Shown in pieces: positions 13,906 to 42,849 of a stretch of DNA of 64,000 bases. Position numbers and translations under genes: made by a program. The notes under the pieces were generated by a model that had not been told where the DNA came from, did no database searches, and saw only the letters and a program-made list of their open reading frames with translations. Location: IMG/VR virus record IMGVR_UViG_3300036766_000548, positions 14,012-78,011 of that record; one strand, given 5' to 3'. Source of the DNA: a virus. How positions within the stretch are numbered: position 1 is the first letter of the stretch; every line of letters starts with the position of its first letter.

Positions 13906-14222
13906 GTACAACAGATATAGATATAGAAAACCTAAAAACAAGAATGTTCATCATAGAAGGAGAAATAGACGATGTAAAAAAAGAACAAGGAGAACAAAGA
14001 AAAGCTATGCATGAAGCGGCTATGGAGAGTGAAAAGATGAGTGGTAAAATAGAAGCCATTAAATCCATACTGGAAGAAATGGCGAAAGCTAAAATAAGAG
14101 GCGTTGATATTATAATAGCTATAGGAGTATTGTTAGTTGGAGCGATGTCTGCTTATGCAGCAATACAAAATAATTCAATCGCTACAGCCATGTTTGAATT
14201 GTCAAAACATACAATAAAATAA
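13902..14222 (+). CDS. Coiled-coil plus single-TM protein (holin/XhlA-like lysis accessory)
   Basis: N-terminal coiled coil, C-terminal TM, directly upstream of the endolysin. Confidence 0.5.
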   Translation: MSTTDIDIENLKTRMFIIEGEIDDVKKEQGEQRKAMHEAAMESEKMSGKIEAIKSILEEMAKAKIRGVDIIIAIGVLLVGAMSAYAAIQNNSIATAMFELSKHTIK

Positions 14223-36622: not shown

Positions 36623-38077
36623 TTATTGCAAATTTTTTAGCAATATTTCGTCAAAACTATAATTAAAAATTCCTTTAGATTCTTTGCCATCGAGTATCAT
36701 TGACATTGACCTAAAGCTTTCCTCTATTCTGTCTGCAACTATATTCTCAATAGTTCCATTGGCAAATGGGAAATATACATTAGCCCTTTCCGCTTTTTGT
36801 CCATATCGATCTATCCTGCTTAATACTTGTATAACCTGTCCTGGTGTATCTGGCATTTCTACTATTCCTATCCCTTCGCTTGCCGTTAATGTTAAACCCT
36901 CCCCACCCGCTTCTGTTTGGATAAAAATCAATTTAACCTTTTTATCTTTTTGAAAACTATCTTCGGCCTTCTGCCTATTTATTCCAGAAATACTTCCATC
37001 TATTTTAACTGCTACATTTTTATATTTAGTGTATAAATCATCCATGACGTTTTTATGCCAAACAGAAATAACCAGTTTATCGTGATCTTCTAAATATTCG
37101 TCTATCCATACAAATAATGCTTTTTGCTTTGCTAAATATGCTAATCGTTTTAATTCACTTAACGTATTCTTTCTATCTTTCTTGTTCAGTATCTTATTAA
37201 AATCATTGCTTAGATTATTGTAATTCTTAGCTTCTAATTTTGTCAATTCCAATGGGATAACAGTAAATATTGGTTCTTTTCTTGTTTTCTTTCTTCGTAT
37301 CATTATCTTTTTTAATTTTTCATTTAATTCTTTTTCGTTACTCGATCCGTTAAATTCCCATCCGCCTTTATATCCGATGGTAGGCTCGCAATAATGCCAA
37401 TAATAAGAATATTCTTTAGGGAATAATTTAGGCGCTGTTAAATGCAATATGGTCCAAAAATTACGTGGACGCTTCCTGATTGGTGTTCCTGATAATGGAA
37501 TGAACACCTTGGGCTTTAATTTATTTACTAATTCGACAAAACACATTGTCCAAATAGCTTTTGGATTCCCAAGTCTATGCGCTTCATCCGGTATTACACC
37601 GATTATATTTAATTTAGTTAATTCTTTCCACCACCCTTCTAACCTGACTATGCCCTTTTTATATCTATGCTTTTTATATTTTGTTCCATTCAATTCACAT
37701 TCTTGCTTTATCAATAATTCTTCTTTATCAAATTTCAATTTTCGTTTATCTTCTAATTTTCTGTCTTTAGCGTTTTCCTTTCCTAATATATGATAATTGA
37801 TAATATAGTAACAATAATTTTTAGATAAACTGAATTGCTTTTCGCCATTGATTATATATGAATCTTTTCCCGTCCACTTTTCTATTTCTCGTGCCCATTT
37901 GAGTTTCATTGATTTGGTGCAGACAATTAAATATTTCCCTGGATAGCTGATATCGCTTATACCGATAGCTTCTATTGTTTTGCCAAGGCCACACTCATCC
38001 CCAATAATAGCATAGCCATTATGTTCCTCGACAAATTTAATACATTCTTTTTGATACGGAAGATACTTAAGCTTCAA
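36623..38077 (-). CDS. SNF2-family helicase
   Basis: DECGLGKT, DEAH, LSGTP, GGEGLTL, QVLSRIDRYGQ. Confidence 0.9.
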   Translation of the reverse strand: MKLKYLPYQKECIKFVEEHNGYAIIGDECGLGKTIEAIGISDISYPGKYLIVCTKSMKLKWAREIEKWTGKDSYIINGEKQFSLSKNYCYYIINYHILGKENAKDRKLEDKRKLKFDKEELLIKQECELNGTKYKKHRYKKGIVRLEGWWKELTKLNIIGVIPDEAHRLGNPKAIWTMCFVELVNKLKPKVFIPLSGTPIRKRPRNFWTILHLTAPKLFPKEYSYYWHYCEPTIGYKGGWEFNGSSNEKELNEKLKKIMIRRKKTRKEPIFTVIPLELTKLEAKNYNNLSNDFNKILNKKDRKNTLSELKRLAYLAKQKALFVWIDEYLEDHDKLVISVWHKNVMDDLYTKYKNVAVKIDGSISGINRQKAEDSFQKDKKVKLIFIQTEAGGEGLTLTASEGIGIVEMPDTPGQVIQVLSRIDRYGQKAERANVYFPFANGTIENIVADRIEESFRSMSMILDGKESKGIFNYSFDEILLKNLQ

Positions 38078-38133
38078 TTATTTTCCTTTAATAATAGGCT
38101 GTTTTTTATTTTTCCAACCCATTATATTATCCT

Positions 38134-38256
38134 TTAATTCTCACAGATAATAGCGAGTTGACCACAAGCAGCACCGGCGTTAATTTCGGCTTGTGTCGCG
38201 ATTGCAATGGCATAATCATAACCAGACTTCTGTAATTCTTCCTTAATGCGTTCCAT
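38134..38256 (-). CDS. 40-aa peptide equivalent to the RlmN/Cfr C-terminal catalytic segment
   Basis: MERIKEELQKSGYDYAIAIATQAEINAGAACGQLAIICEN; GAAGGAG SD 7 nt before ATG; AACGQL motif; absent from the ORF track. Confidence 0.8.
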   Translation of the reverse strand: MERIKEELQKSGYDYAIAIATQAEINAGAACGQLAIICEN

Positions 38257-39067
38257 ATATTTCTCCTTCTACTAAAATAGGATCGTCGATAAATCCGTTC
38301 CTCAAAGAATGAATATCAAGTACTAAATTACCCGCAATGCATTTCATTTGATTATTTACTTCACGTTGATATATTTTTGGATATGGATATTTGTTGTATA
38401 TAAAATTAGCACATGAACAACCGTCCCTTTCCATTGATATTGTTTTTCTATAACCAATTAAATCATTTATTGCGACATAATGATTGACACTATAATCGTT
38501 TACTTTCATAAGACCCACAAATCCAAAATCCAATACTCCTTTATTTGAATAATATTCTATATATTCATTTATTTTTTCGTTTGAATCAACAAGTCCTTTT
38601 TGTAGAACGCATGATAAATGCAATTTATCATTCCCATAAATATCAATCATTGAATCAATCTCGAAATCGTTTATTGAATGCCTACTTAATGAAATACTAT
38701 TCACTAATTCATTATTCAACTCGATGCCCTTTCTAGTGTTTATAATTATAAACATTTCAGGGAAAAATGACCGTATCAATTTACATGCCTGTTCTACCTC
38801 ATTAGTAAAATATCCTGGCTCACCTCCAGTAAAAGAAACCCTGTTTATATTGATATTTTTGTCTTTTATGCTAGTCAAAATATAAGACAAAAGGTCCAAA
38901 GAAAATACATCCTTTTTATCTGAACTATATACACAAAATGGACACCCCATATCACAATAATCAGATACGCGAATAAATAAATTAACATAAGGATCGCAAT
39001 ATTTTTGAGATAAACAATCAAAATTTTTTGTCTTTACAACATCTATCCAACTAGACATTTTTAGCAA
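38243..39067 (-). CDS. Radical SAM protein
   Basis: CDMGCPFC and SFTGGEP; extra N- and C-terminal Cys. Confidence 0.85.
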   Translation of the reverse strand: MLKMSSWIDVVKTKNFDCLSQKYCDPYVNLFIRVSDYCDMGCPFCVYSSDKKDVFSLDLLSYILTSIKDKNININRVSFTGGEPGYFTNEVEQACKLIRSFFPEMFIIINTRKGIELNNELVNSISLSRHSINDFEIDSMIDIYGNDKLHLSCVLQKGLVDSNEKINEYIEYYSNKGVLDFGFVGLMKVNDYSVNHYVAINDLIGYRKTISMERDGCSCANFIYNKYPYPKIYQREVNNQMKCIAGNLVLDIHSLRNGFIDDPILVEGEIYGTH

Positions 39068-39351
39068 TGCCCACTACCACAACCACAACCACCGCTACTA
39101 CCGCCTCTATTTATATCACTAGAATTAATAATCTTTTTTTTACTCATGTTTTTAATAGGCTTGTCCTCACAATATTTATTATCGATAAAATGAATTAGTA
39201 AATCAAAACACTCATTAGATATGGCGCCGTCAATATGGAGCTGATTTATTCTTTTATACACATTTATTATACCATTTGTTTTTATGCTCTCTTTTATACT
39301 CGGTAGCCAGAATTCCATTTCTTCGTTCAATTCTCTTTCATTTGATTGCAT
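39061..39351 (-). CDS. 96-aa protein with Gly/Cys C-terminal tail (candidate radical SAM substrate)
   Basis: AAGGAG RBS before MQSNE; ends RGGSSGGCGCGSGHC. Confidence 0.65.
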   Translation of the reverse strand: MQSNERELNEEMEFWLPSIKESIKTNGIINVYKRINQLHIDGAISNECFDLLIHFIDNKYCEDKPIKNMSKKKIINSSDINRGGSSGGCGCGSGHC

Positions 39352-39364
39352 TTTTAGTACTCCT

Positions 39365-40150
39365 TTATATGATATTAATGCCTTGAATGGCACCATTTCC
39401 CATATTGTTTTTCTCAGAAATCGTATTTTTATTTATTGGTGATAACTTGATAAAAAATCTATTCTTGTCAAAAAGTCTCTTTAATTCTTCTATATCAAAA
39501 TCGCCTTCTTCAACCAATGTCATGTTAATAGTTGTTTTAAGATTGCTTTTGGTCCGTATATTGCTTAATTGTTCTAGTGTCATTTTATTTTTATATGGAA
39601 TAAGCCAATTTCGTTTTTCATTTTTAAGAGAATGCACGGATATTTGAAGGGTTATGTTGTCCTTTATCCAAGAAAAATCAGAACCAATAATGCCTATCGT
39701 AGAAATATAATGATGAGTTTTAGGATATTTTTCATCTATTTTAAATATAGCATCCTTTACATTATCTATATTTAGGAACGGTTCACCCATTCTAGTATAA
39801 TTTATCTTGTGTTCAAATGCTTCTTGAAAACGTTCAGTTCTTTTAGATAAAACAAATTCAACTTGTTCCACAATTTCTTGCGATGTAAGGTTCCTGTATT
39901 TTTTCATTGCACCCGTAGCACAAAATTTGCATCTAACTGGACATCCCGACATCGTAGAAACGCCAATCATCCAACGTTCTTTTCTACTCCCTATTTTTGT
40001 ATCATGAAGTATATTTTGTTTTTGTCCAATAGCATCTTTAGTATATGAAGGCAAAAATGTATCGGTTACCTCAATAAGAAAATTATCTTCTGTTTTTAAG
40101 GCATATACAATTCCATTTGCGAATTCTTTATGCTTAATTTCTGTCAACAT
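39365..40150 (-). CDS. RlmN/Cfr-like radical SAM core lacking its C-terminus
   Basis: VSTMSGCPVRCKFCATG..RNLT..EIVEQV, MGEPFLN, ISTIG, LQISVHS; no AACGQL; Gly at the C118-equivalent position. Confidence 0.85.
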   Translation of the reverse strand: MLTEIKHKEFANGIVYALKTEDNFLIEVTDTFLPSYTKDAIGQKQNILHDTKIGSRKERWMIGVSTMSGCPVRCKFCATGAMKKYRNLTSQEIVEQVEFVLSKRTERFQEAFEHKINYTRMGEPFLNIDNVKDAIFKIDEKYPKTHHYISTIGIIGSDFSWIKDNITLQISVHSLKNEKRNWLIPYKNKMTLEQLSNIRTKSNLKTTINMTLVEEGDFDIEELKRLFDKNRFFIKLSPINKNTISEKNNMGNGAIQGINII

Positions 40151-40240
40151 TTACCATCTCCTTATTCCATTTTCTACTATTCAATGTCGTAACCAAATCA
40201 TCCACATCTCCAGTATAATATCTCCAATAATCCCGCTTGT

Positions 40241-41215
40241 CTATTTTGTTATATTCCCTTGACCAATATCCTTTGCCTTATTATTATGATCTATACAAAC
40301 ATCCAAACAATTTTTTCTGCAAATAAGATCGTTATAAGTATTTGTTTTTTCAAACCATATTTTTCTTTCTTGTCTAATTTCTTTAATAGATTTCCCATAA
40401 ACATTCCCAATAGCTTCGCCTTGCTCGCGCATATAAATTACACAAGGAAAATGTTTTCCATGTAAAATAACCATATCATCTTTTACTAAATGGCATTTAT
40501 TGCAATCGGTTTCTTTCATGCCTCTAACATGCCTTCCATTATTTATATTATTGATCCTATATTTCAATATCTTATATTTTGTTTTTACGTTTATATTCAA
40601 ATAATGATTTGATTGTGCTGTAGGAATAATTCTAATATCTGATACTTTTAATTTAGTTGCAAATTCAATAATATTTTTCAATTCATCATTATTTTGTTTG
40701 TCCAATACCACCCCTACAGTTACATAAGTCAATTTAGATAATTCTTTTATAATCATCGCTATATGCTCAAAATGAGAATTGGTCCCTGCCATAATATCGG
40801 CAGTAGAAGAGCAACAGGCATCTAGCGAAATTGAAAAATCATTTATTCCGGCTTTGTGTAATTGCTTATAATATTCTAATTCTGCCGATCCATTTGTAGA
40901 AATAGCAATATGTTTAATACATTTTTTGCTTTTAGTGTATTGAACCAATTCTAATAAATCTTTCCATATAGTAGGCTCACCACCTGAAAATCTTATATTA
41001 TGTAAATTAGCAGAAGTCCAGATATCTACAATTTCTTTTGCTTGCTCTAAAGTTAAATCCCCTTGAAGGTCTTTTACTATCCCTCGGCAATAAGGACATT
41101 TGAAATTACAACGATTAGTCAATATCAATTCACACCGTTGTAAATCACTTTCCCAAGAAACGTTTTTTGCCCTTTTATCGGAAAGAGTATAAAATCCAAT
41201 ATCTTCAAGTTTCAA
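40241..41215 (-). CDS. MoaA-like radical SAM protein
   Basis: CNFKCPYC, IRFSGGEPT, ISTNG, SISLD; C-terminal Cys cluster. Confidence 0.85.
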   Translation of the reverse strand: MKLEDIGFYTLSDKRAKNVSWESDLQRCELILTNRCNFKCPYCRGIVKDLQGDLTLEQAKEIVDIWTSANLHNIRFSGGEPTIWKDLLELVQYTKSKKCIKHIAISTNGSAELEYYKQLHKAGINDFSISLDACCSSTADIMAGTNSHFEHIAMIIKELSKLTYVTVGVVLDKQNNDELKNIIEFATKLKVSDIRIIPTAQSNHYLNINVKTKYKILKYRINNINNGRHVRGMKETDCNKCHLVKDDMVILHGKHFPCVIYMREQGEAIGNVYGKSIKEIRQERKIWFEKTNTYNDLICRKNCLDVCIDHNNKAKDIGQGNITK

Positions 41216-42086
41216 TATTTAACTCCTTTCTAACTATATTTTCCTCATCCTTTGTATAATCACCAGGATCATGTTCAAACTCAGGATTGAATATTTCCAC
41301 TTCCACGCCTAATGCCGATAACTGCTCACCATATTTTCTCGCCCTATCCTGCGCCATTTTCTCATTGTCGAATAAAAATATAACTTTCTTGAATCGTTTG
41401 GAAAGTAGGTTTATTTGTTCCGGTGTAATTTCAATACCGAAAGAACAAGAAACATTATTGTGGCCTAATCTCCAACAATCGAATGGCCCTTCTACCAATA
41501 TTATATAGTTATTCATACAATTATCTAGGTTATATAGTATTTTTTTATTGGAAATAATTGCTTTATCTGTTTTTAAATTTCTATATCTAATTTCATTGTT
41601 TACAATTGTTCTCCCTAAGAATGTCACTAATTTATTTTGATAAAAAACTGGAATAATAATTCTAAAATTCCATTCTCCTATAATCCCTCCACCTTGTATT
41701 TTATATGTATCTACTAAATAATAAGGATCAAAATTCCTTTTAATCAAATATTTCCTTTCTTTTTCATTTAATATACTTCCAGGCAATTCAATATTATGTA
41801 TTTTACCTTGTGTTTTATTCAATTTATTCAATACTATTTTATCAATAGTATTTTCATTTAATAATATATTAAGATCATTAAACGACAAATTCAATAATTT
41901 TTGTAAAATATCCTTTGCATTTATTCCACCACATCGCCAACAATTATAATAAAATTCATTTAGATTAAATCCACCATGATATTTAGTATCATTACAATTT
42001 GGACAGCAAACATTTATCCATCCATTATCACCTACTTGATATTTTATTCCATATTGTTTGAACATACTAGGAAGATCAATTTTCAT
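41205..42086 (-). CDS. DNA primase (zinc finger + Toprim)
   Basis: CPNC...CWRC, LVEGPFD, FLFDNE, DPGD. Confidence 0.85.
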   Translation of the reverse strand: MKIDLPSMFKQYGIKYQVGDNGWINVCCPNCNDTKYHGGFNLNEFYYNCWRCGGINAKDILQKLLNLSFNDLNILLNENTIDKIVLNKLNKTQGKIHNIELPGSILNEKERKYLIKRNFDPYYLVDTYKIQGGGIIGEWNFRIIIPVFYQNKLVTFLGRTIVNNEIRYRNLKTDKAIISNKKILYNLDNCMNNYIILVEGPFDCWRLGHNNVSCSFGIEITPEQINLLSKRFKKVIFLFDNEKMAQDRARKYGEQLSALGVEVEIFNPEFEHDPGDYTKDEENIVRKELNIET

Positions 42087-42849
42087 TGTTCTTCCTTTTT
42101 GCTGCTTCTTTTCGTTCTCTAGTTTTACGTTTTGTTTCTTTTAATTTGTTTATAGATTCTTGTGTCCATACTCTACCTACGCCTCTTAATCCAATTATTC
42201 TTTTTTGTTCATCTGTTAAATGTTTATGTAATCTTAATTGCGCTTGTCTATTTTTTTCTATTTGTTCTGGAGTCTTTTTTCTGCCCTTTTGTGCATCGCT
42301 AATTTTCTTTTTAGTTTCCTCTGATACTGGATGACCTTTTATCCTTTGTGATAATTTCTTTTTGGCCTCTTCTGTATGATGTCTACCTAGATGAGCTAAT
42401 CTGTTTTTTTCTTTTGCTTCTTTAGATGGTTTCCATCCTAAATTTCTTAATCTAGATTTTTCACAAAACTCTTTTGATCTTTTTTGTCCTTTATTAGCTA
42501 TGCTTAATTTCTTTCTTGTAACTTCGTTGGGTATTCCTCCTGATCCACCGCCGTCCATAAGGTTATATCCATATTTGCTGTTTGTGCTTTTATATTCTTT
42601 AATCCAATATTTTTCTTTTCTATCTAATGTTCTTTTTGAGTAAGCAAAATCTATTGTAGCCCATTTGAAATTGTTTTTGCCATATTTTTTTAACGCCCTT
42701 TGAAAATAATAACCATCCCCTCTTTGAGCACTAGATAAATGCAATGATTTTCTTCTTCTTAATGTTCCAGTAGTTTGCCCAATATAAACTTTATCATTCA
42801 TGATGTTTCTAGCTCTGTAAATAATGCCATAAAGTTTCTTTTCTTTCAT
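42076..42849 (-). CDS. GIY-YIG homing endonuclease with NUMOD3 repeats
   Basis: GIIY...KVYIGQT, GYNL..GG, repeated SEETKKKIS-like units. Confidence 0.9.
   Translation of the reverse strand: MKEKKLYGIIYRARNIMNDKVYIGQTTGTLRRRKSLHLSSAQRGDGYYFQRALKKYGKNNFKWATIDFAYSKRTLDRKEKYWIKEYKSTNSKYGYNLMDGGGSGGIPNEVTRKKLSIANKGQKRSKEFCEKSRLRNLGWKPSKEAKEKNRLAHLGRHHTEEAKKKLSQRIKGHPVSEETKKKISDAQKGRKKTPEQIEKNRQAQLRLHKHLTDEQKRIIGLRGVGRVWTQESINKLKETKRKTRERKEAAKRKNNEN

Follow-up and report, generated by a model that had tools for sequence, protein, structure and literature searches.

Introduction

Radical S-adenosylmethionine (SAM) enzymes with small protein partners have yielded much new peptide chemistry. In sactipeptide and ranthipeptide systems (e.g. 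CteB/CteA, PapB/PapA, and SkfB/SkfA), a radical SAM gene lies beside the gene for a small protein that combines a recognition region with a variable, Cys-bearing C-terminus, and several precursor copies can share one locus; QhpD/QhpC is a comparable combination of a radical SAM enzyme and a small protein. In mycofactocin biosynthesis (MftC/MftA) and in pearlin-type scaffolds, a small scaffold peptide undergoes the chemistry at its C-terminal residue. MftC has a SPASM domain, requires MftB, a protein with a recognition element (RRE) for peptides that are made on ribosomes and modified after translation (RiPPs), and targets a C-terminal Val-Tyr, and pearlins use tRNA-dependent ligases. Here we analyse a 64,000-nt stretch of viral DNA (IMG/VR record IMGVR_UViG_3300036766_000548, positions 14,012 to 78,011; hereafter the window), where a 96-aa protein ending in Cys is encoded directly upstream of a radical SAM enzyme, rSAM-C, between the two parts of a split RlmN-like gene. 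An initial annotation had proposed the two as a RiPP-like pair.

The locus shares with sactipeptide and ranthipeptide systems the arrangement of the two genes, a related enzyme fold and, in one other phage (locus L004), multiple copies of the putative precursor gene in one locus. It differs in that rSAM-C has neither a SPASM domain nor an RRE by Pfam and belongs to a family of only ~270-300 aa, that the presumed leader is a folded three-helix domain and the invariant residue the very last Cys, and that the pair is virus-restricted and linked to RlmN-like genes. The MftB-like RRE, SPASM, and tRNA-dependent ligase components of the mycofactocin and pearlin systems are likewise not seen in this locus, and chemistry at the C-terminal residue as found in those systems would explain why only the last residue of the tail is invariant. 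We found neither the pair nor phage RlmN-like enzymes described in the literature searched, and the pair looks like an undescribed enzyme-substrate module.

A conserved pair of a Cys-tailed protein and a radical SAM enzyme

Conservation, tight coupling, and restriction to viruses characterize the pair, and docking of its two members is supported by a controlled structural model. We compared 20 viral and 80 metagenome loci with rSAM-C relatives, which collapsed at 90% identity to 68 non-redundant loci, 60 of them with readable upstream DNA. A small ORF (76-211 aa) ending in Cys lies directly upstream of the enzyme gene in 32 of these 60 loci (counting ORFs of ≤220 aa with a terminal Cys) and in 25/29 of the RlmN-linked ones; two more upstream ORFs, in L128 and the 90-aa ORF of L002, end in Cys-Ser. 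Both proportions stand against a background of 3.9% in the viral loci (31/805 ORFs of at least 60 aa end in Cys), and the two genes thus do not lie side by side by chance. The pair is retained in about 30 other phage lineages, and in seven non-redundant loci (L013, L018, and L141 among them) the small ORF remains adjacent to rSAM-C with no RlmN-like gene nearby. From this comparison across loci we conclude that the 96-aa ORF is a real gene and that its pairing is beyond chance.

The junctions between the two genes measure mostly -7 to +20 nt, and some enzyme start codons overlap the Cys codon. For the window, the overlap reported initially depends on the start codon: from TTG at 39067 the enzyme gene overlaps the Cys and stop codons by 7 nt, while from ATG at 39058, the start used in the database gene call P0002, the genes are separated by a 2-nt gap. 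In L004, two tandem small-gene paralogues precede a single enzyme gene. Synteny, tight junctions, the tandem copies of L004, and the controlled complex prediction together bear out the proposal of a dedicated pair. As to whether homologues of the enzyme also occur without such a partner, a question raised by the initial annotation, the close clade keeps the partner at the frequencies given above, and some distant homologues lack it.

The 96-aa protein is preceded by a Shine-Dalgarno-like AAGGAG 7-8 nt upstream of its ATG, and its translation ends in RGGSSGGCGCGSGHC; the longer C-terminal stretch reads DINRGGSSGGCGCGSGHC, followed by the stop, with the codon of the terminal Cys96 at 39064-39066. 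AlphaFold2 (17-sequence alignment) predicts helices at residues 3-26, 28-41, and 46-60 and disorder from 61 to 96, with a predicted local distance difference test score (pLDDT) below 50 for residues 64-83, in agreement with the helical body and abrupt Gly/Cys tail described before. The small protein belongs to no family of Pfam, NCBIfam, PHROGs, or PADLOC and has no usable match in the ESM Atlas, and Foldseek returned nothing below E 3 for the model. A word-indexed search yielded one relative of the small protein and six of rSAM-C, and the closest homologues of the pair are P0009 and P0003, each with a longest contig of 13,392 bases. When aligned, the small partners form one family with a common helical domain ('E..F...F....L...G.IS.E'), in which no residues other than Met1 and the final Cys are invariant.

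Among 33 distinct partner tails, the last four residues follow a loose (N/R)(G/S)(R/S/H)C pattern. A D-[PGS]-C-like motif stands upstream of the tail end in 24/33, with a distance from its Cys to the terminal Cys of 7-18 residues in roughly half of the 24 and more in the others, and 31/33 have at least two Cys within the last 30 residues. Tail length (~8 to 60 residues), number of Cys (1-5), and Cys spacing are highly variable; there are tails with just one Cys and without Gly, and an example without Gly from L004 ends in ...NFRSTTC. The Gly/Cys-rich core emphasized in the initial annotation is therefore not conserved across the 33 partners, where the C-terminal Cys alone is invariant. Judging from the tails compared, the Gly/Cys-dense tail of the window copy is one variant and not the rule.

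We rejected the small protein as a detached N-terminal domain of RlmN, given that none of 17 family members matched RlmN or RlmN_N at E≤1. Its helical domain weakly resembles the helical tail domain of GatE/YqeY type (PDB 1zq1_C, residues 513-564, profile E 7e-4), and one member matches Pfam GatB_Yqey at E 0.029. Helical tail domains of this type bind tRNA, but the likeness may be a chance similarity between helical bundles.

Predicted docking of the small protein on rSAM-C

Complex prediction, using both family alignments, supports binding of the small protein to rSAM-C. The interface score ipSAE was 0.63 (0.62-0.64 in three runs) compared to 0.01 for the best control; the mark applied to this score is reached by 58/80 solved complexes and by 2/110 mismatched pairs. 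The runs share at least 40% of contacts, and the pLDDT of the partner is at least 67. The predicted interface brings the partner helices (residues 11-43) together with enzyme residues 16, 204, 206, and 220-228, and the predicted docking site is the C-terminal sheet of the enzyme, next to C15 and C214/C216.

A virus-restricted radical SAM family

Cluster motif, Pfam threshold, GGE motif, and fold all place rSAM-C in the radical SAM superfamily. The Pfam match to PF04055 scores 30.5 bits at a cut-off of 29.5, the CX3CX2C cluster motif (CDMGCPFC, residues 35-42) is invariant in 29 family members, and the GGE-type SAM-binding motif (SFTGGEP) is likewise invariant in the family alignment. Further conserved Cys in the 29-member alignment are C15, C214, and C216, all invariant, and the nearly invariant C150. 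Every top structural match of the AlphaFold2 model (pLDDT 91.6) is a radical SAM enzyme, and the best ones are effectively tied (MoaA Z 16.8, GDGT-MAS 16.5, viperin 16.2, SuiB 15.9, and BlsE 15.9), followed by CteB (Z 14.1) and SkfB (Z 14.0), with PqqE and ChlB also among the matches. Only ~30 residues precede the barrel in this model.

Scores against curated families are all far below the respective cut-offs. MoaA (GTP 3',8-cyclase) ranks first overall by structure (Foldseek TMq 0.68; the VIA Z score given above extends over 242 residues) and, like rSAM-C, has further Cys in the region of the C-terminal sheet. However, rSAM-C reaches just 24.1 bits against 284 for the MoaA model TIGR02666, with only the N-terminal 72 residues aligned, and has no Pfam match to Mob_synth_C (PF06463). 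The extra Cys of MoaA follow a CxxC...C pattern in contrast to C15, C150, and the CxC of rSAM-C, and MoaA is not known to have a protein partner of the Cys-tailed kind. Two other assignments were rejected: viperin or its prokaryotic relatives (pVip), where NF038283 gave 26.5 bits vs 180 and the PADLOC pVip matches cover only residues 31-130, and a PflA/NrdG-type activase, where NrdG-type models gave 14-17 bits vs 126-152 and the partner tails are without a conserved Gly.

A profile search of 1.84 billion representatives recovered at least 201 clusters (50% identity) of the rSAM-C family at E≤1e-30. Across the 185,579 species genomes of GTDB there were two full-length matches only, neither of which we counted as a cellular occurrence: a 1.3-kb fragment, and a 425,361-bp contig filed as a Pacearchaeota metagenome-assembled genome that is identical to an IMG/VR jumbo phage contig (JBBACR010000001.1, our L084, agrees with L010 in length and coordinates) and probably represents a mis-binned phage. 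In GenBank, the only phages with rSAM-C are four uncultured megaphage records, and the pair is present in no cultured phage. Within the data searched, the family is essentially virus-restricted.

Some members deviate in architecture. rSAM-C is broken into two ORFs in L019:7851-8775 and L020:1876-2650, either by assembly error or by gene decay, and is intact in the near-identical metagenome locus L133. In P0118, a 737-aa protein found by profile search, an N-terminal HemN-like radical SAM part of 440 aa (assigned by reading the sequence) is fused to an rSAM-C-family domain at 442-736. A distant rSAM-C clade (28-31% identity) lies directly downstream of large proteins of ~480-800 aa (L137, L142, L146, L152-L154, L160, L163, L165-L170, L173-L175, L177, L179-L184, and L186-L189). 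Some of these large proteins start with DUF1810 and have a 'CHPEV...GTAPVY...KSCGEGKGPN' region, and 6/21 non-redundant ones end in Cys. They were rejected as glycyl-radical enzymes (Pfam found only DUF1810, LRR, or nothing), and the distant clade may be a related protein-tail-modifying system.

The split RlmN-like enzyme around the pair

The 261-aa ORF upstream of the pair matches positions 100-281 of TIGR00048, and the family of the 40-aa peptide downstream covers positions 287-343 (seen in a longer homologue from L005, E 1.9e-4), which confirms that the pair is truly nested in a split RlmN-like gene as initially annotated. Core and peptide family share these regions with RlmN and Cfr (class A radical SAM methylases), including the Cys of AACGQL. 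They differ from these enzymes in being encoded by two genes, in lacking the N-terminal RNA-binding domain, in a Gly at the position of the resolving Cys, and in scores far below the cut-off (77 bits vs 290 for the core). RlmN and Cfr, as defined here, have two mechanistic Cys, the methyl carrier within AACGQL and the resolving Cys, which precedes the cluster motif by seven residues. In the window the former is found on the separate 40-aa peptide, and alignment to PDB 6fz6 shows Gly at the latter position ('migvs' vs 'tvcvs'), which we take to correspond to C118 of E. coli RlmN, the other mechanistic Cys being C355. The three cluster Cys are the only Cys of the core.

The RlmN-like enzyme comes in two pieces (core, with Gly at the resolving position, plus ~40-aa Cys peptide) in every phage examined (the window, L023-L083, L197, L200, and L201; crAss-like, Ounavirinae, Moorella, and jumbo phages are among them), and 40-aa peptides of 60-76% identity adjoin the cassette in other phages. 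What lies between the pieces differs. Core and peptide are directly adjacent in many phages (L041, L071, Kehishuvirus, and a Moorella phage), a 90-aa ORF fills the interval in Pectobacterium and Yersinia phages, and a large gut crAss-like group (e.g. L023) has a different radical SAM enzyme and a class I methyltransferase there. In L121 the pair precedes the core and in L136 it follows the peptide, so that the order varies and adjacency is kept. Further, 60/61 viral loci found via the RlmN-like core are without rSAM-C, the split enzyme without the pair being found also in the cultured phages Kehishuvirus 'tikkala', Moorella MTATph1, Pectobacterium Arno18, and Yersinia P778, and one 95%-complete phage of 213 kb has the pair and a homologue of another radical SAM enzyme of the locus, rSAM-A, without an RlmN-like core. 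For these reasons, the pair is an accessory and accompanies the RlmN-like enzyme usually but not in every case, and the RlmN-like enzyme does not need the pair.

The methyltransferase module is a second nested module (L023:6780-7968, also in L064 and L069) that consists of a 255-aa radical SAM enzyme with an unusual, extended Cys motif (NCNMNESTGVNGNCYFC) and a 148-aa class I methyltransferase. L004:5428-7316 has both this module and the Cys-tail/rSAM-C module.

Possible roles of the pair

All functional readings rest on sequence, synteny, and predicted structures. On balance, and with some reserve, we favour the 96-aa protein as a dedicated substrate (precursor or carrier) of the adjacent rSAM-C, the two forming a RiPP-like pair. 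Besides the synteny, the tight junctions, and the complex prediction, several observations lead to this reading: a shared helical domain followed by a variable tail with an invariant end resembles leader-core precursors, the tandem copies in L004 resemble RiPP clusters with multiple precursors, the nearest folds of the enzyme include the peptide-modifying SuiB, CteB, PqqE, SkfB, and ChlB, and a terminal Cys recurs in some of the large proteins encoded upstream of the distant clade. The three-helix N-terminal domain would act like a leader and dock on the C-terminal beta-sheet of the enzyme beside Cys15 and Cys214/Cys216, whereby the disordered Ser/Gly-rich tail could bring its invariant terminal Cys, and often a second Cys in a 'D-P-C' context, to the active site, where a 5'-deoxyadenosyl radical might alter the terminal Cys of the tail or a site close to it. 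That the last residue is invariant suggests an importance of the free carboxylate or of the position as such, which would fit a terminal-thiol cross-link, Cys oxidation, or oxidative decarboxylation. The candidate reactions, i.e. a thioether cross-link, oxidation of the alpha- or beta-carbon, or oxidative decarboxylation, are drawn from known radical SAM chemistry, and none of them is favoured by the evidence. We infer the tail as substrate, the type of reaction, and a product that works with the split RlmN-like enzyme.

A number of results weigh against a substrate role of this kind. SPASM maturases are defined by a C-terminal SPASM domain, a seven-Cys motif, and two auxiliary clusters, and Pfam found no SPASM or Fer4_14 domain in rSAM-C; neither Pfam nor NCBIfam models gave an RRE or PqqD match in rSAM-C or any other ORF of the cassette. 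The initial annotation had already seen no clear RRE or full SPASM motif, and lacking both, rSAM-C is not a canonical RiPP maturase. Only the helices of the partner, not the tail, are placed confidently in the complex model. Moreover, some rSAM-C homologues have no small partner and directly follow the RlmN core (L021/L192-195 type) or a 353-aa protein (L015). A folded 'leader' of 60 residues and a setting in a phage replication module are unusual for RiPPs, and the near-constant linkage to RlmN-like genes suggests a role in a larger enzyme system instead of a free peptide product.

As an alternative, the small protein might be an accessory subunit or a shuttle, serving as Fe-S ligand, as sulfur or electron carrier, or as an in-trans thiol for the RlmN-like core. 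The core, with nothing but its three cluster Cys and a Gly at the resolving position, would have use for such a thiol, the pair lies beside RlmN-like genes in most loci and keeps this adjacency despite the changes in order, and the predicted docking site adjoins the conserved Cys15 and Cys214/216 of rSAM-C. However, since the split RlmN-like enzyme so often occurs in phages that lack the pair, the latter is not an obligatory thiol donor, and the nearly complete phage with the pair and no RlmN-like core points in the same direction. The partner in the complex modelled is rSAM-C, number and spacing of the tail Cys vary too much to form a fixed cluster site, and the four further conserved Cys of the enzyme could complete a cluster unaided. 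These last two points also weaken the earlier suggestion that the tail supplies Fe-S ligands, and altogether we regard an accessory role as unlikely. Somewhat less probable still is a joint pathway, in which the pair and the two-piece RlmN-like enzyme (here together with rSAM-A) would convert the terminal Cys of the scaffold to a new cofactor or reactive group, and this group or the peptide would be used by, or transferred through, RlmN-like methylene chemistry onto a nucleotide or nucleic-acid target.

Two further explanations are clearly less convincing than those above. rSAM-C might be an activase that installs a stable radical of glycyl or thiyl type on the tail, the small protein being a radical cofactor like GrcA/YfiD with PflA. 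The source of one homologue labelled it 'organic radical activating enzyme', the fold matches include the PFL-activating enzyme (Z 13.1), NrdG/PflA families match weakly, and the tail in the window is Gly-rich. Yet the tails have no conserved Gly or RVxG-type motif, some being devoid of Gly, every activase family scores far below its cut-off, and the enzyme, with its four extra conserved Cys, is closer to the folds of MoaA, SuiB, and viperin, making this role improbable. We give marginally less credence again to the pair as co-transcribed cargo at a recurrent insertion site, with the small protein as an independent effector (e.g. metal-binding or anti-defence). The content of the interval does vary, from radical SAM plus methyltransferase (L023) to the 90-aa ORF of Pectobacterium and Yersinia phages and GIY-YIG-like genes (L003), but the small ORF stays with rSAM-C at the seven loci where no RlmN-like gene is nearby, the gene junctions are tight, and the complex prediction passed its controls.

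The enzyme of the pair belongs to a large family that is essentially confined to phages, jumbo and megaphages included, and is covered by no curated family and no paper that we found. The signature of the partner, a folded helical docking domain with an invariant C-terminal Cys, is unusual and directs attention to a single residue. As the pair usually adjoins the widespread RlmN-like enzyme of phages, and this enzyme lacks one catalytic Cys, the chemistry of the pair may help to explain that enzyme, and it would show whether phages use RiPP-like protein maturation in their replication programme. If the joint pathway were true, it would constitute a virus-specific radical modification system without a described counterpart.

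Genomic setting

The genes of the block (Table 1) belong to a complete phage genome of 78,011 bp with direct terminal repeats. All of them are located on the minus strand, in the order rSAM-A, RlmN-like core, 96-aa protein, rSAM-C, and the 40-aa AACGQLA ORF, which has 14 nt in common with the 3' end of rSAM-C. They are situated within the replication module, where Pfam identified a DnaE-type polymerase, a DnaB-like helicase, an SNF2 helicase, a Toprim primase, and a GIY-YIG/NUMOD3 endonuclease. A promoter and terminator scan of 37900-42300 found no terminators, and promoter-like sites were at or below shuffled expectation, lending weak support to a single transcription unit, on which we do not rely. 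The only sequencing run with the stretch is a sediment metagenome, its probable source, and no RNA run is listed for it.

Table 1. Features of the radical SAM block, with positions in the window
Feature	Position	Strand	Basis
Small partner protein P0001, 96 aa; helices 3-60, disordered Ser/Gly/Cys tail 61-96	39061..39351	-	Translation, AlphaFold2, family alignment
rSAM-C (P0002), 271 aa from ATG 39058; alternative TTG start 39067	38243..39058	-	Pfam PF04055, family alignment, AlphaFold2, fold matches
RlmN/Cfr-like radical SAM core, 261 aa	39365..40150	-	TIGR00048 positions 100-281; alignment to PDB 6fz6
40-aa peptide, detached RlmN C-terminal segment with AACGQL Cys	38134..38256	-	ORF list, homologous peptides in other phages
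rSAM-A, radical SAM enzyme, 324 aa, MoaA/PqqE/PapB-like	40241..41215	-	PF04055, 88 bits; weak PapB-family match

The match of rSAM-A to the PapB ranthipeptide maturase is nearly full-length (residues 29-311 vs model positions 6-320 of 330, E 8e-11) and far below the cut-off. Its C-terminal Cys motifs, CNKC...C followed by CRKNCLDVC, have a SPASM-like appearance. A homologue of 50% identity is encoded at L013:9429-10400, at 0.6 kb distance from the pair of this phage, which has no RlmN-like core, and in both phages rSAM-A may be a second enzyme acting on the same tail.

The GIY-YIG/NUMOD3 gene at 42076-42849 of the window resembles homing endonucleases and adjoins the primase. GIY-YIG-like ORFs, read by eye, also occur inside the RlmN-like interval of other phages (L003:6787-7629 and L007:7243-7524), and their presence in both settings suggests that the region is prone to mobile insertions.

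NAD-salvage genes were located at a distance of 5-8 kb or less from the cassette in 5/20 viral rSAM-C loci, NAMPT-like in L004, L006, and L007 and NadR-like and PnuC-like in L013 and L018. This group of five includes both viral loci without a nearby RlmN-like core. The genome of the window itself has no NAD-salvage genes; further ones are nicotinamidase-like in L069 and NAMPT-like in L071.

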